DNA of 64,000 nt from Polyangia bacterium (GCA_035549075.1 DASZRT010000151.1:26693-90692), one strand, 5' to 3'; positions 10,683 to 40,380 are shown, counted from the stretch's first letter. Notes: generated by a model not told the origin, from the letters alone. Made by a program: numbers and translations.

Positions 10683-12458
10683 ATGATGTCCCGAGGAATC
10701 ACGTCCACCTGCGTCGGTCTTGGCGTCGCCTTGGCCCTCGCTGGGTGCACCGGTACGATAGGCGGCTCGCCCGGCGCGGGTCGGCAGCCCGGCCAGAACG
10801 GCGGCGGTCCCGGCAGCGGCGGCACCGTTGGCTCGACGGGGGCTGGCGGAACGATCGCCGGCGCCGGTGGCACCATCGGGACGGGCTCGGGCGGTGGGGC
10901 CCCGGCGTCGTGCTCGGCGGCCGCGCCCGATCCGGGCGACACGCCCCTCGCGCGCCTCACGCAGGAGCAGTACCTCAACACGCTTCACGACCTCTTCGGC
11001 AACATCAACCTCACCTCGATCTTCCCCACGTCGCAGAGCGCCTCGCAGTTCGGGCTCGCGCAGGCCGACGTCGACGGCTCCGACCTCGACAAGTACCAGC
11101 GCGCCGCCGAGCAAGTGGCCGCCGCCGTCGTCGCCGACAAGAACGCGATGGCCAAGATCGCGCCGTGCACGGCGACCGCGGCCGCCGATCAGCGCACGTG
11201 CGCGAAGACCTTCTTGCAAAACTTCGGCACGAAGATCTACCGCGCGCCCATCGACGCCGCCGACTTCGATCGCCACCTCGCGCTCTACGACGCGGGCTCG
11301 CCCAACGGCGGCTACGCGCACGGCATCGAGCTCATGTTGCGCGGCATGATGCAGGCGCCGCGCTTCCTCTACCGCGTCGAGCTCGGCACGGCCGAGGCCG
11401 TGGGCCCGACCGCCGTGAAGCTCTCGGGCTACGAGCTCGCCTCGCGCCTGTCCTACACGCTGTGGAGCACGGGCCCCGACGACGCGCTCTTCGCGGCGGC
11501 CGCGGGCGGCAAGCTCGCGACGGCGGCCGACGCGCAGGCGCAGCTCACGCGCATGCTGGCCGATCCGCGCGGCGCGACGGCCGTGCGCCACTTCCTCGAG
11601 TCGTGGATCCACCTGCCCGATCTCGACAACGTCGCCAAGGACGGGACGCTCTACCCCGAGTGGAACGACGACGTCCGCGGCGCGATGACGACGCAGGCGC
11701 AGAAGTTCTTCGACGACGTGCTCGCGACCAAGGGCGGCACCGTCGCGTCGCTGCTGACGTCGAAGACGGTGTTCGCCAACGGCAAGCTCGCGCCGATCTA
11801 TTCGGCGCAGGCGACGACCTTCCCGACCGACGGCAGCTTCACGAGCAGCGACAAGACCGACGGCACGGCCTCGGGCCTGCTGACGCTGCCGGCGTTCCTC
11901 GCGACGCAGGCCAAGGCCAGCGAGAGCTCGCCGATCTACCGCGGCAAGTTCGTGCGCGAGCAGCTCTTCTGCCAGGAGCTGCCGTCGCCGCCCGCCAACG
12001 TCCCGCAGGCTCCCATGGTGACCCCGGGCGCGTCGACGCGCGACCGCCTCAAGCAGCACGAGAGCGACATGACCTGCGCCACGTGCCACACCCTCATCGA
12101 TCCCGTGGGCCTCGGCTTCGAGCACTACGACGCCATCGGCCGCTACCGGACCGTTGACGGCGGTAAGCCCGTGGACTCGACCGGCAAGCTCACGGGCACC
12201 GACGTCGACGGCGCGTTCGACGGCGTGAGCCAGCTGGGCACGATGATCGCCGCCAGCGCGCAGGTTCAATCGTGTGTCGCCAAGCAGTGGTTCCGCTACT
12301 CGATGGGCCGTGGCGAGCAGGACGCCGACAGCTGCTCGATCAACGCGCTCACGCAAGCCTTCACGGGCGCGGGCGCCGACCTGCGCACGCTGCCCGCGGC
12401 CATCGTCGCGACGCCCGCGTTCCTCTACCGCCGTCCGCTCGCGCAAGGGAGCAACTGA
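10683..12458 (+). CDS. DUF1592/DUF1588/DUF1585-family lipoprotein (so-called Planctomycete cytochrome-c-like) with a single CxxCH-like motif (CATCH)
   Basis: GGAGG RBS before ATGATG at 10683. Lipobox LALAGC. Gly-rich linker. C-terminal CQELPSPP...MTCATCHTLIDPVGLGFEHYDAIGRYR is characteristic of the DUF1585/DUF1588 region. Confidence 0.85.
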   Translation: MMSRGITSTCVGLGVALALAGCTGTIGGSPGAGRQPGQNGGGPGSGGTVGSTGAGGTIAGAGGTIGTGSGGGAPASCSAAAPDPGDTPLARLTQEQYLNTLHDLFGNINLTSIFPTSQSASQFGLAQADVDGSDLDKYQRAAEQVAAAVVADKNAMAKIAPCTATAAADQRTCAKTFLQNFGTKIYRAPIDAADFDRHLALYDAGSPNGGYAHGIELMLRGMMQAPRFLYRVELGTAEAVGPTAVKLSGYELASRLSYTLWSTGPDDALFAAAAGGKLATAADAQAQLTRMLADPRGATAVRHFLESWIHLPDLDNVAKDGTLYPEWNDDVRGAMTTQAQKFFDDVLATKGGTVASLLTSKTVFANGKLAPIYSAQATTFPTDGSFTSSDKTDGTASGLLTLPAFLATQAKASESSPIYRGKFVREQLFCQELPSPPANVPQAPMVTPGASTRDRLKQHESDMTCATCHTLIDPVGLGFEHYDAIGRYRTVDGGKPVDSTGKLTGTDVDGAFDGVSQLGTMIAASAQVQSCVAKQWFRYSMGRGEQDADSCSINALTQAFTGAGADLRTLPAAIVATPAFLYRRPLAQGSN

Positions 12459-26440: not shown

Positions 26441-27376
26441 TCAGTCTTCGAGCTGCACGCGCAACGCGTAGACCAGATACGTGCGGGCGAGTGGGCCTGT
26501 CCACAGCCACGGCGGCAACAGCTCGGGGGTGCCGACCTCGGCGAGGATCGGGCGCACGACGGTGGGGTTCGCCGCGTAGTAGGCGGCGCCCTTCGCGACG
26601 ACGTCGTCGAGGACGCGGGCGAGGTCGGCGTCGGGAGGCAGCTCGTCGAGCGGATAGAAGTTCGACGACACGACGTCGCTCGCGAAGAGCGCGGTGCCAC
26701 CTTCGGCCGTGAGGCTCACGAGCGTCGACAGGTGCGTGCGCAGCAGCGCGTGGCGCGCGGCCTCGAGAGTGGGGTGGCGATCGCCGAGCGCCTCGCGCAG
26801 CGCGAACGCCATCTGCGTCATCACGCACGCCGAGACGACGACGTCGAACGGCCCGGGCAGCCGCGCGATGAGCCCGTCGAGGGTGGCGCCCGCGACCTCT
26901 TCCAGCTCGGCGGCGTCGGGCGGCGCGCGCCGCCAGCGCGCGAGGCGGCGCGCCGACAAACCCGAGAGATCGACGTCGCCGTGACGATGCAGCCGCGCGC
27001 GTACGGCGGCTTCGGGCCGCGCGACGGCGCGCGCGAGCGCCTTGCCGTCGAGGTCGACGAGGTGGATCTCCGCGAACGCGGCGTCGCCGGCGAGCGCCGC
27101 GAGATCGAGATCGTTGCACGCGCCGGCGCCGAGCACGCACAACCGCCCGCCGGGCCGCGCGAGCTGCGCGCGCACGGCCGCCGTGAAGCGCGCGCGGTGC
27201 GCGGCGTAGAGCTGCCAGTCGTCGATGGTCGCAGTCTGCGCGCGCGGGCTCAGAACTGCGACCAAAACCGCCACGTGCCGACGGTGCTCATCGGGACCTG
27301 CGGCGAGTGGCCGAGCCCCGTCGTGGGGCACCACACGACGGGGAAGCCCGGCAGGCAGCCTTGATACTCGACGCAC
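26441..27376 (-). CDS. Putative class I SAM-dependent methyltransferase-like protein; start uncertain
   Basis: CVLGAGACNDLDL (motif I-like), EIHLVDLD (motif II-like), DVVVSACVMTQM (motif IV-like). The first ATG of the ORF overlaps the upstream esterase gene by 126 nt, so the true start is probably internal or non-ATG. Confidence 0.45.
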   Translation of the reverse strand: MRRVSRLPAGLPRRVVPHDGARPLAAGPDEHRRHVAVLVAVLSPRAQTATIDDWQLYAAHRARFTAAVRAQLARPGGRLCVLGAGACNDLDLAALAGDAAFAEIHLVDLDGKALARAVARPEAAVRARLHRHGDVDLSGLSARRLARWRRAPPDAAELEEVAGATLDGLIARLPGPFDVVVSACVMTQMAFALREALGDRHPTLEAARHALLRTHLSTLVSLTAEGGTALFASDVVSSNFYPLDELPPDADLARVLDDVVAKGAAYYAANPTVVRPILAEVGTPELLPPWLWTGPLARTYLVYALRVQLED

Positions 27377-28395
27377 ACCGACGGCGTCTTCGGATCACCG
27401 TCCCAATCGTAGGGCTTGGTGTCGGTGCCGCACTTGTTGATGGCGAGGATCCGGTCGCGCGCCATCTCGCCGCCCGCGATCGGGTTCATCGTGTCGGTCG
27501 TGTCGTGCATCATCATCGCGGCGACCGGCCCGCTGCACGCAGGGATGCCCGGCGGCAAGCCGCCCGTCGTGTTCGCCTGCGCCCGCAGCGTCACGCTGCC
27601 GCGCGCGCAGCCGATCAAGTTCGACAGCCACGAGCCGCTGCTGTGGCCGATCAAAAAGACGCGCGCCTCGTCGACGCACGTGAGGCCCTCGACGTCCTTC
27701 AGGACCTGGTCGTAGTACGGCACCTCGGGCGAATTCGGGTTCATTGTGTCGAAGCAGCCGCCGCCGTAGAGCATGCCGCTGTTCTGCGAGTCCTTGGAGC
27801 GCAACGCGACGAGGATCGCGTCGCCCTTCGTCGCCTGCTCCATCGGGTACGGAATGCTGCCGTCGCAGCCGTGCGCGAGGAACACGAGCGGGTACGCGCG
27901 CGTCATGTCGTAGCCCGTCGGGAGGCGGAGATCGTAGACCCGCGTCGAATTCGTGACCGTGTGGCGCACGTAGCTCGCGAACGCCTGCGCCGGCACCTTG
28001 TTGCAACCGAGGCTGGGCATGGGCGGCGGCTTCGTCATGAGGCCGCCGTCGCCAGCGCCGCCTTCGGGCGCGCCGCCGTCGGAGCCGTCGACGCCCGCGT
28101 CGGCCGTCGCGCCGCCAGCTCCGCCCGGAGCGCCGGCGACGGACGAGCCTCCGGTGCCACCGCCTTCGGTCATCTGACCGCCCGCGCTCGAGGTCGAACC
28201 GCCGCCGCCCGAACCGCCGGGGGCCGCCGTCGCGCCGCCGGCTCCGCCGATGCCGTTCTTGGGCGCTTCACTGGCGGCGCACGCCGCCAGCGAGAGGACG
28301 AGGACCGCGAACGACCAAGGAAAGCCACCAAAATGAAACGACTTCGAGGGGGGCACGCCAGGGTCTAGACGACGGAAAAGCCGCCCGGCAGGCAT
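27250..28395 (-). CDS. Secreted alpha/beta-hydrolase: PHB-depolymerase/feruloyl-esterase-family lipoprotein with a Gly-rich linker
   Basis: Lipobox LSLAAC, GGxGG linker, VFLAHGCDGS oxyanion region, and a LIGHSSGSWL GxSxG nucleophile. Confidence 0.8.
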   Translation of the reverse strand: MPAGRLFRRLDPGVPPSKSFHFGGFPWSFAVLVLSLAACAASEAPKNGIGGAGGATAAPGGSGGGGSTSSAGGQMTEGGGTGGSSVAGAPGGAGGATADAGVDGSDGGAPEGGAGDGGLMTKPPPMPSLGCNKVPAQAFASYVRHTVTNSTRVYDLRLPTGYDMTRAYPLVFLAHGCDGSIPYPMEQATKGDAILVALRSKDSQNSGMLYGGGCFDTMNPNSPEVPYYDQVLKDVEGLTCVDEARVFLIGHSSGSWLSNLIGCARGSVTLRAQANTTGGLPPGIPACSGPVAAMMMHDTTDTMNPIAGGEMARDRILAINKCGTDTKPYDWDGDPKTPSVCVEYQGCLPGFPVVWCPTTGLGHSPQVPMSTVGTWRFWSQF

Positions 28396-33133: not shown

Positions 33134-34906
33134 ATGACCATGTCGATCTCGTCTGCGGAGCCCGTCTTCACGCGCCGAAGGCGCGCGCGCGTCATGGGAC
33201 GCGTCAACGCGTGGCTCATGCGCTTCCTGCCGGCGCGGCCGCCGCAGGGCGAGGCGCTGCGCCGCGCGCTCGTCACGGCCGCCGTCGCGTGCCTCTTCGC
33301 GATCGTCGCGCCCGTGTACGCGGGGCTGTCGTTCCTGTTCGAAAAGCCGCCCCTCATCTATTACGGACTCGCGATCGAGACGGCCGTCGCGTGCACGGCG
33401 GCGCTGCTGCTCCTCAAGCGCGGCCGCTTCCGGGGGTCGGCGTGGGTGCTCATGCTCGCGGGCACGTCGGCGGTCGTCACGACGGCCGTGCGCGAGGGCG
33501 CGTCGAGCCAAGCCGCCGGCAACCTGGTCCTGCCCGTCGTCATGGCCGTGCTCATCCTCGGCTGGCGCGGCGCGCTCACGATCGGCGTGCCGGGCGTGCT
33601 GCTCATCGGGACGATGGGCGTGCTCGAGCGCGCGGGCCTGTTTCACCCGGCGGCCGAGACGCACGGGCTCGGCGTGTTCGCGATCGTGCAGGTCAGCGCG
33701 GTCATGGTCATGCTGCTCGTGTTCGACGGCGTGCGGCTCGCGCTCGTCGAGGCGCAGCGCGAGCTCGAGGCGCAGCTCGCGCGCGCGCACCGGCTAGAAG
33801 CCGTGGGCCGCGTCGCGGGTGGCGTCGCGCACGACTTCAACAACCTGCTCACGGTGATCCTCGCCAACGCGAGCCTGCTGGCCGAGACGACCCATGATGA
33901 CCCGAGCGTCGCCGACATCCGCGCCGCGGCCCAACGCGGCTCGCAGCTCACGAAGCAGCTGCTCGCCTTCTCGCGCCAGCAGAAGCTCGAGCCGCGCACC
34001 TTCGATCTCGCGGCGCAGGTGAGCGAAGAGCGCGTGCTGCTCGGGCGCCTCATCCCCGAGTCGATCAAGATCGAGGTCGAGCGCCCCCCACACCCCGTGT
34101 GGGTCCACGCCGATCCCGGGCAGATCTCGCAGGTCGTGCTCAACCTCGTCGTCAACGCGCGCGACGCCATGCCGGGCGGCGGGCGGCTGCACATCACCGT
34201 CGCGCGCGCCGACGAAGAGCGCGTGCGCCTCGAGGTGCGCGACACGGGCGTCGGCATGGATCCGCACACGCTCGAGCGCGCGTTCGAGCCGTTCTTCACG
34301 ACCAAGGGCGCCGTGGGCACGGGCCTCGGGCTCGCGACGGTGCATGGCATCGTCACGCAGAGCGGCGGCCAGATCCGCGTGCGCAGCGGCGTGGGCGGCA
34401 CGACGTTCGAGGTGACGTTGCCCGCGGGCGACGGCGCCGACGAGCCGACGCGCCAGAGCAGCGGCGAGCTGCCCATGCTCCGCCGCAAGATGATCCTGCT
34501 CGTCGAGGACGACCCAGGCGTGCGCGCGGCGACGGCCAGGCTGCTCAAGGCGCTGGGCCACGACGTCACGGCCTGCGGCGACGTCGCGACGGCGCTCGCG
34601 GCGTGGCGCAAGAGCGGCTCGCGCATCGACCTCATCTTGAGCGACGTCGTCATGCCGAACGGCGGCGGCCCCGAGCTCGTGCGCGCGTTGCCGGCGGGCA
34701 GCGGCGCGCGCGTGCTCTTCATGTCGGGCTACACCAACGACGCGCTCGAGGCGCCCGATCTCGCGCGCATCCCGTTCCTCTCGAAGCCTTTCACGCGCCA
34801 CGAGCTGGCGCGCAAGCTCGAGGAGGTGCTGACCGCGCCCGACCTCGACGACACCTCGGCGCTGCGCCGCGCGCGCGCCGCCAGCGATCCCGTCGAGCGG
34901 TCCTGA
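33134..34906 (+). CDS. Hybrid sensor histidine kinase/response regulator with a 5-6 TM membrane-embedded sensor
   Basis: Hydrophobic N-terminus, HisKA (VAHDFNNLLTVI), HATPase_c (NLVVNARDAM...DTGVGM...GTGLGL), C-terminal receiver (ILLVEDD...DLILSDVVMP). Confidence 0.9.
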   Translation: MTMSISSAEPVFTRRRRARVMGRVNAWLMRFLPARPPQGEALRRALVTAAVACLFAIVAPVYAGLSFLFEKPPLIYYGLAIETAVACTAALLLLKRGRFRGSAWVLMLAGTSAVVTTAVREGASSQAAGNLVLPVVMAVLILGWRGALTIGVPGVLLIGTMGVLERAGLFHPAAETHGLGVFAIVQVSAVMVMLLVFDGVRLALVEAQRELEAQLARAHRLEAVGRVAGGVAHDFNNLLTVILANASLLAETTHDDPSVADIRAAAQRGSQLTKQLLAFSRQQKLEPRTFDLAAQVSEERVLLGRLIPESIKIEVERPPHPVWVHADPGQISQVVLNLVVNARDAMPGGGRLHITVARADEERVRLEVRDTGVGMDPHTLERAFEPFFTTKGAVGTGLGLATVHGIVTQSGGQIRVRSGVGGTTFEVTLPAGDGADEPTRQSSGELPMLRRKMILLVEDDPGVRAATARLLKALGHDVTACGDVATALAAWRKSGSRIDLILSDVVMPNGGGPELVRALPAGSGARVLFMSGYTNDALEAPDLARIPFLSKPFTRHELARKLEEVLTAPDLDDTSALRRARAASDPVERS

Positions 34907-35977
34907 CTACTTCCTGAGCTGGAAGTGATCGGCGTAGACGACGCCGTGCCACTCGGCCGCGCCCGTGCCCGACATCGTGAGGCGGAAGCCCATCGACGTG
35001 ATGTTCGTGAGGTCGCCCGTGTTGAAGGCCGACTCGATGGGGAAGGGACGGAACTCGAGCCATTTGCCGACGGTGATCGGCTTGGTCTGGCTGGCGTTGG
35101 CGAGCAGCAGGCCCTTGTCCTTCGAGACGAGCTCCATCTGCGCCGTCACCACCGCGCCCGCGGGCAGCGCCGGGCCGTCGAGGTAGAGCCAGCCGAGGCT
35201 CGCGCGTCCGACGGCGTTGGTGATGGGCAGGCCCGTGCCCGTCGCCGGGAAGGCGAACTGCGCCTCGCCGCGCATCCCGGCGTCGCTGCCGGGCACGAAG
35301 TCGACGCCCACGGTGAGGTTCGCCTTGTAGCAGTACGGGTGGCACATCTGGACGGCATATCCGGAGAACGCCGTGCCGTAGTTCGTAATCGTCACGGGCG
35401 TCGTCGACGGGTCGTAGCCGGGCGTGAGCTTCTTGACGTTCGTGGCGTAGTTCGACGCGTCGTAGTTGGCGGCGACGTCGAAGTCGATGCCCTGATCTTG
35501 AACGTCGCACTCGCTGAAGTTCGTGTTGATGCGGTTGACGGCGCCCGCGACGTCGTTGGAGATGCACGCGGGCGGCTTGCCCGCGCCGATCGAGCCACCG
35601 CCGCCCGTCGAGCCACCCGTTGCGGTCGTGCCGCCGGCGCCGCCCGTCGCCGTCGAGCCACCGCCGCCCGTCGAGCCACCCGTCGCGGTCGTGCCGCCTG
35701 TGCCGCCGGTCGCGGGCGTGCCACCGGTCCCGCCCGTCGCCGATGAGCCACCGGTGCCGGTCGTACCGCCCGTCGCGGGCGAGCCGCCATCGCCACCGTT
35801 GCTCGAAGGCGGTGGGTTGCCCGTCGAGCCACCCGTGTCGCTCGTGCCGGCAGTGCCTCCGCTGCCTGTGCTGCCGCCCGTCGCGCCGTGGCGCGGCGGC
35901 TCGGAGCTGGTGCACGCACCGATGGCGATGGCCGCGCACGCGGTGAAGACGAACGAACGAGTCTGGGGGCGCGTCAT
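34907..35977 (-). CDS. Lipoprotein with a Gly/Thr/Ser linker and an unassigned ~230-aa Cys-containing C-terminal domain (paralog A)
   Basis: ATG 35977 with an AGGAGAG RBS. Lipobox AIAIGAC. The C-terminal domain is shared with the next gene (ITNYGTAFSGY..CHPYCYKANLTVGVD..EWHGVVYADHFQLR). Confidence 0.8.
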   Translation of the reverse strand: MTRPQTRSFVFTACAAIAIGACTSSEPPRHGATGGSTGSGGTAGTSDTGGSTGNPPPSSNGGDGGSPATGGTTGTGGSSATGGTGGTPATGGTGGTTATGGSTGGGGSTATGGAGGTTATGGSTGGGGSIGAGKPPACISNDVAGAVNRINTNFSECDVQDQGIDFDVAANYDASNYATNVKKLTPGYDPSTTPVTITNYGTAFSGYAVQMCHPYCYKANLTVGVDFVPGSDAGMRGEAQFAFPATGTGLPITNAVGRASLGWLYLDGPALPAGAVVTAQMELVSKDKGLLLANASQTKPITVGKWLEFRPFPIESAFNTGDLTNITSMGFRLTMSGTGAAEWHGVVYADHFQLRK

Positions 35978-35988
35978 CGAAAGCTCTC

Positions 35989-37029
35989 CTAGAGACCGAA
36001 GGGGTATTGGCCGGACGGGTCCTTCATCGCAGCGCCCGTGCGCATCTGCAAGTGATCGAGGTAGACGACGCCGTGCCACTCCATGCCCTTCGGCAGGTTG
36101 GCGGGCGCCGTGATGCGGAAGCCGAGGCCCGTGACGTTCATCGGCACCGTCGGGAACGTCGTCGCATTGATGCCGAAGTACTTGAACTCAGCGTGCTGGT
36201 AGTCGAGCCAGTTCGCGTAGCCGATCGGCTGCGCCTTGCCGGCGACGATGATGCCCGTCGGCGTCTCGATCACCATCTGCGCCGAGATCGTGAACGGCGG
36301 CTTCGTCGGCCCGTCGAGCTGGATCCACGCGAGCGAGTCGCGTCCCACGGCCGTGGGGATCGGCAGGCCGTTGCCCGTCGTCGGGAAGCGCACGATGACC
36401 TCGCCCTGCAGCGCCTTTGCGTCGCCGCCGCCGACGATGTCGACGCCGATCGTGAGCTCTTTGCTGAAGCAGTATGGGCTGCAGTCGTTGATCTCGTAGT
36501 ACCCGAGCGCCGTGCCGTAGTCGGTGATGCGGATCGAGCCCACCGGCTGCGGGTACGAGTACCTGTCCTCGAAGTCGAGGCTCTGCAGCAGGAAGTCGCA
36601 CTCGTTCGTCGGCTTCTGCGAGGGGATCGGCGACGGCTTCTTCACGAGGCACGTCGGCGTGGTGCGGCCGCCGGCGTCGGGCGGAAGCACGAACTCGCCG
36701 TCGGTCGTCGCGCCCGCGTCGGTGTTCGTCGAGCCGCCGCCGCCCGTCGAGCCGCCCGCGCCCGTCGAGCCGCCGCTACCCGTCGAGCCGCCGGTCGAGG
36801 TCGAACCGCCCGTGCCCGTCGAGCCGCTGTTGCCGCCCGTCGACGTCGTGCCGCCCGTGCCCGAATCACCGCCCGTCGACGTCGTGCCGCCCGTGCCCGC
36901 GCCCGTCGTCCCGCCCGTCGCCGATGATCCACCGTTGCCACCCGAGCCACCGCGCGGCGGCTCCGAGCTCGTGCAAGCAACGGCCGCGAGGACGCAAACG
37001 ACCACCAAGCGAACGCCGGACAAACGCAT
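35989..37029 (-). CDS. Lipoprotein with a Gly/Thr/Ser linker and the same unassigned C-terminal domain (paralog B)
   Basis: ATG 37029 with a GAGGAG RBS. Lipobox LAAVAC. ITDYGTALGYY..CSPYCFSKELTIGVD..EWHGVVYLDHLQMR aligns with paralog A. Confidence 0.8.
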   Translation of the reverse strand: MRLSGVRLVVVCVLAAVACTSSEPPRGGSGGNGGSSATGGTTGAGTGGTTSTGGDSGTGGTTSTGGNSGSTGTGGSTSTGGSTGSGGSTGAGGSTGGGGSTNTDAGATTDGEFVLPPDAGGRTTPTCLVKKPSPIPSQKPTNECDFLLQSLDFEDRYSYPQPVGSIRITDYGTALGYYEINDCSPYCFSKELTIGVDIVGGGDAKALQGEVIVRFPTTGNGLPIPTAVGRDSLAWIQLDGPTKPPFTISAQMVIETPTGIIVAGKAQPIGYANWLDYQHAEFKYFGINATTFPTVPMNVTGLGFRITAPANLPKGMEWHGVVYLDHLQMRTGAAMKDPSGQYPFGL

Positions 37030-37122
37030 CAAATGAAATCTCCTCGAACGAAAGATTTCGACTCTCTCACGCGGCTCCGTCGACGGACCGTGCATCCCCT
37101 CGCAAAGAGATGCACCCAATTT

Positions 37123-38406
37123 TCAACGTCGCTCGCGGCCCGTAATGAGGCGCGCGCCGTGTCGAAACCTCACGTACGACCAGAACCAATCGGCCAGCAC
37201 CGACAACCGGTTCTTGAAGTCGATGAGGTACCACAGGTGCACGAACAGCCAGGCGAGCCACGCGACCACGCCCGACATCCGGAGCTTGCCCACCTGCGCC
37301 ACGGCGCGCTGGCGGCCGATCGTCGCCATCGAGCCTTTGTCGAAATAACGAAACGGCTCGCGCGGCTCACCGCGCAGGTCGCGCACGATGGTCGCGGCGA
37401 CGTGGCGTCCCTGCTGCATGGCGACGGGGCTGACGCCCGGCAACGAGCCGCCCGCCGTCGGGAAGCACGCGAGGTCGCCGATCGCGAACACGCGCGGGCG
37501 CCCCGGCAGCGCGCAATCCTCGCCCACGACGACGCGCCCGCCGCGGTCCAGCGGCGCGCCCGCCTCCTTGCTCAACTTGGCCGCGAGCCCGCTCGCGCGC
37601 ACGCCCGCCGTCCATAGAATCGACGACGACGCGATGAGCTCCTCGCCGATCCACACGCCCTGGTCGTCGATGTTGGTGACGCGCACGCCCGTACGGACGG
37701 TCACGCCCAGCTCGGTCAGCGATTCGGCCGCCTTCTCCGACAGGCGCGGATCGAACGTCGCGAGCAAGCGCTCGCCCGCCTCGACGAGGATCACCTTGAT
37801 CCACGACGGATCCAGCGTGCGAAAGTCGCTCTTGGCGATGGGGCGCGCCAGCTCGGCGATCGCGCCCGCGAGCTCGAGGCCCGTCGGGCCGCCGCCGATG
37901 ACGACGAACGTCAAGAGCTTGCGGCGCAGCGCTTCGTCTGCAGCGTCGTCGCCCGCTCCGTGGCGCGCGCTCTCGGCGCGCTCGAGCGCGACCAAGACGC
38001 GACGGCGGATCTCGAGCGCGTCCTCGATCGACTTGAGACTGGGCGCGTGCGCGGCCCACTCGGGGTGGCCGTAGTAGTTCGTCTCGGCGCCCGCGGCGAC
38101 GACGAGAAAGTCGAACGACAGCGACGTCCCGTCGTCGAGCGCGACGGTGCGCGCGTCGAGATCGAAGCCCGTGACCTCGGCCATGAGCACCGAGACGTTG
38201 CGTTCGTCGCGGAACAGCGCGCGGATGGGCACGGCGATCTCGGCGGGGCTGAGCGCCGCCATCGCGACTTGATAGAGCAGCGGCTGAAACAGGTGGTGGT
38301 TGGCGCGGTCGACGATCGTCACGCGCACCGGCGCGTCGACGAGCGCGCGCGCGGCCGCGAGCCCGCCGAAGCCGGCGCCCACGACGACGACGTGTGGCGT
38401 ATCCAT
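37123..38406 (-). CDS. ndh: Type II NADH:quinone oxidoreductase (NDH-2)
   Basis: Two dinucleotide-binding motifs (VVVVGAGFGGL; VIGGGPTGLELAG) and a C-terminal membrane-anchoring helix. Confidence 0.9.
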   Translation of the reverse strand: MDTPHVVVVGAGFGGLAAARALVDAPVRVTIVDRANHHLFQPLLYQVAMAALSPAEIAVPIRALFRDERNVSVLMAEVTGFDLDARTVALDDGTSLSFDFLVVAAGAETNYYGHPEWAAHAPSLKSIEDALEIRRRVLVALERAESARHGAGDDAADEALRRKLLTFVVIGGGPTGLELAGAIAELARPIAKSDFRTLDPSWIKVILVEAGERLLATFDPRLSEKAAESLTELGVTVRTGVRVTNIDDQGVWIGEELIASSSILWTAGVRASGLAAKLSKEAGAPLDRGGRVVVGEDCALPGRPRVFAIGDLACFPTAGGSLPGVSPVAMQQGRHVAATIVRDLRGEPREPFRYFDKGSMATIGRQRAVAQVGKLRMSGVVAWLAWLFVHLWYLIDFKNRLSVLADWFWSYVRFRHGARLITGRERR

Positions 38407-39243: not shown

Positions 39244-40380
39244 TTGCAAGTCGCGGTGTTCAAGGCCTCTCGCATCGCTCTGATCGCGCTGATCTCGCTC
39301 GCGTGCTCGGGTGCCGGCAACCCCGGCACGGGAACCGGCGGCACCGGCGGCGTCGCCGACACCGGTGGAAGCGCCGACACGGGCGGTGCGCCCGCGACCG
39401 GCGGCAGCGGCGGCGCGCCCGCGATCGGCGGCACCGGCGGCGCTCGCGACCCCCTCGACACGGCGCCGTGGCGGCCGCTCTCGATCACGGCGACGAAGGG
39501 CCTGCACCAACACATGGTGTTCGGCGAGACCTACGTCGGCGTCGACACGCGAGCCGCGAAGATGGCCGGCAAGCTGGTCGTCGATCTCGGCGTCGACCAA
39601 GGCACGTACCTGCCGTGGCTCGGCAAGCGCGGCTTCCACGTGTTCGGCGTGAAGTTCTATCACTGCCAGCACATCGACAATTGGAGCGCGCCCTACGGCC
39701 GCGATTACCCGACGAACTGCCGTTTGCAGACGTTCGACGGCATGGCGCGCGGCGGGGCCGAAAACGACGCCAACGGCAACGTCACCGCCACCAACAACAT
39801 CGCGTACAAGATCAAGACCGGCCTCGCGATGCTGCACGCGTCGTACCCGCAGGAGGATTGGGGGTACTTTCTCAACCAAGACGGCTCGGTCCGTTGGTCC
39901 GACGTCGCGATGACGGGTTACTCGCACGGCGCGCAGACGGCGGCGATGCTCGCGCACTACGTACGCCTCTACCGCGTCGTCTCGCGCTCGGGCCCGCGCG
40001 AGAACAACTGTGGCAACGGCGCGCTCGTGGGCGCCTACGATCCGAACAACCCACCGTTCAAAGCCAACTGCGACATGAGCCAGTGGGGCTCGTGGGAAGA
40101 CGTTCCGTTCGTCACGCCCGTCGAGCGCGTGTTCTCGTTCGCCGGCACGATGGACACGCAGTTCGGCGACGACATGTGGAGCTGCGATCACATGAAGTAC
40201 GTCGGGCTGCCCTTCGACGTCTCGAACACGGCGCCGCCGTACGACGGCCTGACCTACGACGGCTCGCACCGCTTCATCAGCAGCGAGGGCCACACCGCCT
40301 TCGACTCGAAGCCGAGCGAGCTCCAAGCCGAGAACGCCGCCTTCGGCGTCCTGCCCGAGAACCTGAACCCCAATTTCTAG
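39244..40380 (+). CDS. Secreted lipoprotein with a Gly-rich linker and a putative alpha/beta-hydrolase (GYSHG) domain
   Basis: Lipobox ISLACSG. GxSxG nucleophile-elbow-like MTGYSHGAQTAAML. Cys-rich. Confidence 0.7.
   Translation: MQVAVFKASRIALIALISLACSGAGNPGTGTGGTGGVADTGGSADTGGAPATGGSGGAPAIGGTGGARDPLDTAPWRPLSITATKGLHQHMVFGETYVGVDTRAAKMAGKLVVDLGVDQGTYLPWLGKRGFHVFGVKFYHCQHIDNWSAPYGRDYPTNCRLQTFDGMARGGAENDANGNVTATNNIAYKIKTGLAMLHASYPQEDWGYFLNQDGSVRWSDVAMTGYSHGAQTAAMLAHYVRLYRVVSRSGPRENNCGNGALVGAYDPNNPPFKANCDMSQWGSWEDVPFVTPVERVFSFAGTMDTQFGDDMWSCDHMKYVGLPFDVSNTAPPYDGLTYDGSHRFISSEGHTAFDSKPSELQAENAAFGVLPENLNPNF

Follow-up and report, generated by a model that had tools for sequence, protein, structure and literature searches.

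Two paralogous lipoproteins from an uncultured Polyangia lineage with a domain resembling carbohydrate-binding modules: candidate lipid-anchored glycan-binding proteins

In a 64,000-nucleotide stretch of DNA from a Polyangia bacterium (GCA_035549075.1, DASZRT010000151.1:26693-90692; hereafter the window, with positions counted from its first letter) we examined two adjacent minus-strand genes, A (35989–37029; 346 residues, MRLSGVRL...) and B (34907–35977; 356 residues, MTRPQTRSF...), which an earlier note based on the sequence had described as tandem lipoproteins sharing a domain it could not name. That domain, 223 residues long in both proteins (residues 124–346 of A, 35992–36660; residues 134–356 of B, 34910–35578; both minus strand), is predicted to be a beta-sandwich of the type found in carbohydrate-binding modules (CBMs) and is remotely homologous to the modules of the CBM59/CBM44 group. 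The best explanation of our results, and one that we consider on balance probable, is that A and B are stand-alone, non-catalytic, lipid-anchored glycan-binding proteins.

AlphaFold2, run with the family alignment, modelled B as a beta-sandwich with a mean predicted local distance difference test score (pLDDT) of 93.4 and a predicted template modelling score (pTM) of 0.90; the AlphaFold2 model of A was also a beta-sandwich (mean pLDDT 86.5, pTM 0.86). The predicted beta-jelly-roll sandwich of ~150 residues can be superposed on solved CBMs: fold searches matched 1WKY, the mannanase of Bacillus sp. JAMB-602 (match scores 13.5 and 12.6), whose module is assigned to CBM59 (PMC8952944), as well as the CBM27 structures 1PMJ (12.1 and 11.2) and 1OF3 (10.9 and 10.2), the CBM44 structure 2C4X (11.4 and 10.2) and the CBM28 structure 1UWW (11.3 and 10.5). 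The earlier suggestion of a carbohydrate-binding or catalytic fold is borne out for its first part, as two independent models and the fold searches agree on a CBM-type fold, while nothing supports catalysis. A beta-sandwich could also bind a protein or another non-carbohydrate partner, as other members of the fold class do, which would make A and B adhesins, cell–cell recognition proteins or assembly factors; we regard this as unlikely, and the matches that we obtained by sequence were to glycan-binding modules.

A profile of the family matched by hmmsearch a 1622-residue protein (P0106; E 5.7e-9) which, by Pfam, contains six PF21253 "mannanase galactose-binding-domain-like" modules and whose N-terminus looked GH5-like by eye (NEP motif), and also a protein with three similar repeats (P0109; E 7e-6). 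When the family was aligned with the repeats of these two proteins by hhalign, the match had 94% probability (E 1.2e-7) and took in the C-terminal 98 columns. Used as a query, a profile built from the repeats matched two PDB sequences, 2C26 in its CBM44 region (residues 99–254; E 4e-8) and 1WKY in its CBM59 region (residues 315–462; E 6e-7), the very structures that topped the fold searches. When a wider profile of the family, one that took in divergent members along with the A-type and B-type proteins, was aligned with the repeats plus these two PDB sequences, i.e., with a target profile that includes the CBM59 of 1WKY and the CBM44 of 2C26, the match reached 96% (E 5e-9) over 155 columns, which is the entire sandwich. 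These profile comparisons indicate that the domain has more than a fold in common with the CBM59/CBM44 group and is related to it by remote homology. The domain that had gone unrecognised is therefore not an unrelated novelty, and the result falls little short of a condition that the earlier note had set for giving up its reading, namely a confident assignment of the domain to a known CAZy/CBM or peptidase family; what stands of that description is that no curated CBM model gives a significant match. The family profile also matched P0107, a protein with lamin-tail-domain repeats (E 2e-8; profile positions 48–105), in which the segment CSEFxYTxNLTxDV resembles CHPYCYKANLTVGVD; this may be chance.

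Pfam and NCBIfam searches with full-length A and B identified nothing, the sole entry being a compositional match of TafF (E 0.066) to the linker, and Pfam searches with 23 domain sequences at E ≤ 10 returned noise only, with PF21253 scoring on none of them. Searches of the PDB by sequence likewise gave only noise (E > 0.2), whether the query was one sequence or a profile of the family, and in this sense, being without a Pfam, NCBIfam or PDB sequence match, the domain is indeed unassigned. We detected no second domain, and hence no catalytic one, in A, B or their homologues, all of which are stand-alone proteins.

That A and B are paralogs was evident from a BlastP comparison of the full-length proteins (37% identity, E 2e-33) and also from a tblastn comparison of the domains (37.7% identity over 228 columns, E 1e-37); because the alignment of the domains alone is significant, the paralogy, which had been noted before, is not an effect of the low-complexity linkers. 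Five motifs had been listed as shared: four are exact in both proteins, but ITxYGTAxxGY fits B and not quite A (ITDYGTALGYY). In place of the conserved Cys pair that had been described we found four invariant cysteines (C5, C24, C79 and C83 in domain numbering), which would pair in two disulfides and so stabilise the domain after export. With all subfamilies taken together, ~40 positions show at least 90% conservation, including E23, D25, Q29, D32, Y39, Y82, D93, E105, R125 and W130 as well as E175, R199, W210, H211, D217, H218 and R222. In the alignment with the PF21253-like repeats, the last-strand G-x-x-Y-x-D and the Trp of the W-x-E-F strand fall on conserved positions and are thus generic to this class of module; the remaining conserved residues may belong to a binding cleft or a metal site or, with lower likelihood, to an active site. 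The conserved aromatic and polar residues W130, W210, Y82, R125, E105, E175, H218 and R222 are candidates for lining the cleft that CBM44 and CBM59 use. Positions that distinguish the A-type from the B-type subfamily include Q77/N, G129/A, A216/I, E27/L and D34-V35/E-D. Specific to the family are an N-terminal extension of ~30 residues that carries C5 and C24 (helical in B, Pro-rich in A) and the C-x-P-Y-C loop. The B-type proteins have an insertion with PGYDP, and the A-type proteins alone have a C-terminal tail directly after the last beta-strand (TGAAMKDPSGQYPFGL in A; 35992–36039, minus strand) with the motif ...(D/N)xPxGxYP(F/Y)G(L/M), sometimes plus N, Q or K. Of 33 A-type homologues, 31 have the YP(F/Y)G(L/M) part, which the B-type lacks; this tail, which has low pLDDT in the monomer model of A, looks like an interaction or sorting motif and corresponds to no signal known to us.

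Both proteins begin with the features of an exported lipoprotein. The signal peptide of A (residues 1–18, with R2/R7 in the n-region, a hydrophobic core and AVAC) leads to the lipobox Cys19 (codon 36975–36973; whole feature 36973–37029), and that of B (residues 1–21, with R3/R7, a hydrophobic core and IGAC) to Cys22 (codon 35914–35912; whole feature 35912–35977). The signal sequences, ...LAAVAC in A and ...AIAIGAC in B, satisfy the PROSITE PS51257-type lipobox pattern; of 81 full-length homologues, 62 likewise have it within their first 45 residues. The predicted mature N-terminus, CTSSEPPR, is common to A and B. The linkers that follow consist of nearly nothing but Gly, Ser, Thr and Ala and are encoded by DNA repeats of 18, 36 and 63 bp: that of A (104 residues; 36661–36972) derives from 18/36-bp tandem repeats (Tandem Repeats Finder rows at 36727–36894), and that of B (111 residues; 35579–35911) holds a 63-bp tandem repeat (35579–35726; period 63, 2.3 copies, 89% matches). 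The architecture of lipobox, linker and globular domain, as proposed earlier, holds for both proteins.

The contig L009 (GCA_964589105.1, CAZPSI010000050.1) is the same as the window over ~2.2 kb apart from a 63-bp (21-residue) indel (6040–6100 of L009), where one whole unit of the B-linker repeat is missing; this is either a true polymorphism in linker length or an assembly collapse. Some homologues, P0008 for one, have a strict G-X-Y linker that is flagged as a collagen repeat (PF01391). We considered a collagen-like triple helix for the linkers of A and B on this account and rejected it, as both are out of G-X-Y register.

Among outer-membrane lipoproteins of Escherichia coli, about half have disordered N-terminal linkers and such linkers matter for sorting, according to a preprint (bioRxiv 10.1101/2021.01.05.425367). 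The earlier idea of a lineage-specific way of tethering thus does not extend to a disordered N-terminal linker per se; only the length of the linkers and their Gly/Ser/Thr repeats are unusual. The E. coli proteins share with A and B the order of lipobox Cys, disordered linker and folded domain, whereas the linkers of A and B run to ~105–110 Gly/Ser/Thr-repeat residues that stem from tandem DNA repeats, which we take to be far longer than is typical in E. coli. For Myxococcus xanthus a Lys at +2 marks inner-membrane lipoproteins and an Ala at +7 marks matrix lipoproteins (PMC3222651). A and B have neither, and by analogy with these rules they would be sorted to the outer membrane.

The same fold and the same mode of binding could also serve a target on the cell's own side, i.e., an envelope or matrix polymer such as peptidoglycan, periplasmic glucan or exopolysaccharide, with the tether reaching across the periplasm or into the matrix and with a structural or regulatory role rather than nutrient capture. 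We hold such an endogenous ligand to be possible, if rather improbable. According to the same preprint (bioRxiv 10.1101/2021.01.05.425367), outer-membrane lipoproteins facing the periplasm often have long disordered linkers, and this would suit an endogenous ligand, but the nearest homologues of A and B, like their structural neighbours, are modules for plant-type beta-glycans.

The family is real, conserved and very narrow in range. Searches with the B domain identified 88 homologue clusters, with identities down to 49%, and searches with the A domain identified 40; an exhaustive profile search of 1.84 billion cluster representatives gave 28 proteins at E ≤ 0.001, and a scan of 185,579 species-representative genomes for B-type patterns gave six loci, all in metagenome-assembled genomes (MAGs) of this lineage. 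All named sources are uncultured MAGs assigned to Polyangia, Polyangiaceae, Polyangiales, Myxococcales or Myxococcota, and every homologue is annotated as a hypothetical protein, including one identical to A (P0113, VHJ20_23570) in a Polyangia bacterium MAG. Orthologues are 50–73% identical to A among the A-type and 49–75% identical to B among the B-type, whereas A-type and B-type proteins are ~37% identical to each other. One MAG has both types, at the far-apart locus tags VNG33_04560 and VNG33_11475, and at nine other loci we found a single copy only within 6–8 kb, with A and B never adjacent. A recent tandem duplication is ruled out by the gap between ~37% identity between types and 49–75% within them, together with the separate loci elsewhere; A and B belong to two old paralogous subfamilies. 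The very high conservation, 55–75% across MAGs with ~40 near-invariant positions, is what one would expect with a constant endogenous ligand and is thus a point for an own-polymer target.

Among the contexts examined, the A–B tandem occurs in the window and in contig L009, which is essentially identical to it, and A-type genes elsewhere lie in unrelated contexts; as the two types are separate elsewhere, the tandem arrangement is specific to the lineage of the window. The gene order Tos1-like gene, 250-residue membrane protein, type-II NADH dehydrogenase (NDH-2) and B-type gene recurs in two related contigs (L008, 2333–6660, and the contig of P0007) at 68–73% identity and with no A-type gene, which implies that A was either inserted between NDH-2 and B in the lineage of the window or lost elsewhere. 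We considered NDH-2 as a conserved operon partner and discarded it: it precedes B in three related contigs, which looks like plain synteny between close relatives, and the more distant contexts differ. No neighbouring gene was common to the family contexts examined, and these contained no pair of TonB-dependent transporter and SusD, the neighbours being a mixture of unrelated genes together with NDH-2 and a histidine kinase. That polysaccharide-degrading genes are unlinked in most contexts again suits an own-polymer target. Our literature search found nothing specific on this architecture in Polyangiaceae or myxobacteria.

By sequence models A and B fall outside CBM59, CBM44 and all curated families. 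The CBM59 of 1WKY (PF21253, Mann_GBD_bact) is the C-terminal module of a GH5_8 mannanase and has only 9–14% identity to the family, which adds the ~30-residue extension, the four invariant cysteines and the C-x-P-Y-C loop, and in which the domain is the sole domain of a lipoprotein with no mannanase attached. The CBM44 and CBM30 modules of Clostridium thermocellum Cel9D-Cel44A (2C26/2C4X, 2C24) are part of a cellulosomal enzyme and are without lipid anchor or the conserved cysteines, and the mannan-binding CBM27 modules (1PMJ, 1OF3) are appended to mannanases, with no sequence relationship to the family detectable in the searches that we ran. The SusE/F-like surface glycan-binding proteins (SGBPs) of the SGBP-B type in Bacteroidota (7KWB, 7K44) are encoded in polysaccharide utilisation loci (PULs) beside SusC/SusD, whereas the contexts of A and B are variable and no such neighbours were seen; the Bacteroidota proteins belong to another phylum and have no sequence relationship to A and B, which are thus not PUL-encoded SGBPs. 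We propose A and B as members of a candidate new CBM-like family that is clade-restricted, free-standing and lipid-anchored.

Glycan binding, and with it the class of ligand, we infer from this relationship. As the domain appears to be a divergent member of the CBM59/CBM44 lineage, the likeliest ligands would be beta-linked chains of the hemicellulose type (mannan, glucan, xyloglucan or xylan); the CBM59 of ManF-X10 binds mannan, xylan and Avicel (PMC3985142). We envisage that a Sec-type signal peptide would export A and B, that they would be acylated at Cys19 and Cys22, respectively, and sorted to the outer membrane, and that a tether of ~105–110 residues, which fully extended would span ~35–40 nm (assuming ~0.35 nm per residue), would hold one CBM-type beta-sandwich and allow it to sweep the volume around its anchor. 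The disulfide-stabilised domain would then bind a single polysaccharide chain in the manner of its cleft-type relatives, and A and B would differ in ligand or partner by virtue of their N-terminal segments, their subfamily-specific substitutions and the C-terminal peptide of A.

Several findings weigh against this assignment. No curated CBM model matches any of the 23 members, even at E ≤ 10, and six independent contexts revealed no conserved CAZyme or transporter neighbour. In CAZy a CBM is by definition part of a larger carbohydrate-active enzyme, and A and B, being stand-alone proteins, do not conform to this definition. In addition, the conserved set is rich in Asp, Glu, His and Arg, which would also be compatible with metal binding or with an active site. 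If the CBM-like scaffold had become an enzyme whose active site consists of the invariant Glu, Asp, His and Arg residues, that would account for the composition; we consider it very unlikely, and the models and searches gave no support for catalysis. Doubtful too, in our judgement, is a more far-reaching proposal, namely that the CBM scaffold has taken on a new activity, as a small enzyme that uses these Glu/Asp/His/Arg residues or as a receptor for a polymer outside the known CBM ligands (a wall polymer of prey or fungi, or an exopolysaccharide of myxobacteria), with the A-type YP(F/Y)GL peptide mediating assembly with a partner such as B. We retain non-catalytic glycan binding as the best explanation for A and B.

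The same design recurs in the window. In agreement with the earlier note, which had counted at least eight instances, we identified eight open reading frames (ORFs) with a lipobox and a Gly-rich linker, A and B included, the lipobox Cys codons of the other six being at 10746 (+), 26285 (−), 28281 (−), 39304 (+), 41813 (−) and 63072 (−). Four of these six carry recognisable cargo, i.e., a DUF1592/PSD set, a GH95-like domain, a Tos1-like domain (PF10290/PF10287) and a PEBP domain, and two are without a Pfam hit. These two (27250–28281, minus strand, and 39304–40380, plus strand) had no Pfam match at E ≤ 0.1; their products have many cysteines and motifs of the G-x-S-x-G type (IGHSSGSW and TGYSHGAQ), and may be unclassified serine hydrolases. 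The combination of lipobox and linker is a general habit of this organism, with two of the four recognised cargoes, the GH95-like and the Tos1-like, related to glycans. That these sibling lipoproteins bear domains resembling those of exo-enzymes speaks against an own-polymer target for A and B.

The window has ~70% G+C across its length. A and B are co-directional, with the B start codon 11 nt past the A stop, and each has a ribosome-binding site of its own, as had been claimed: a Shine-Dalgarno-like GAGGAG 10 nt 5' of the A ATG (37040–37045, minus strand) and an AGGAGA 7 nt 5' of the B ATG (35985–35990, minus strand) that overlaps the A stop codon. Upstream of A on the same strand lie NDH-2 (37123–38406) and the gene for the 250-residue membrane protein. 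A scan of 34600–37400 for promoters and terminators gave nothing that exceeded shuffled sequences, and so only the 11-nt spacing suggests that A and B are co-transcribed. On the plus strand, 3' of B, a convergent gene for a hybrid histidine kinase ends at 34906, where its stop abuts the B stop codon (34907–34909) and leaves no intergenic room for a terminator.

The fold, its lineage and the principle of tethering are already known, and A and B do not call for a new mechanistic category. If binding is confirmed, they would represent a new CBM-like family found only in uncultured Polyangia, in which the module is free-standing and lipid-anchored rather than an appendage of an enzyme, and they would be a myxobacterial counterpart of the surface glycan-binding proteins of Bacteroidota. 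This would also help to annotate the many hypothetical Gly-linker lipoproteins in these very large genomes, and would give a hint of how these soil bacteria may keep polysaccharide at the cell envelope.
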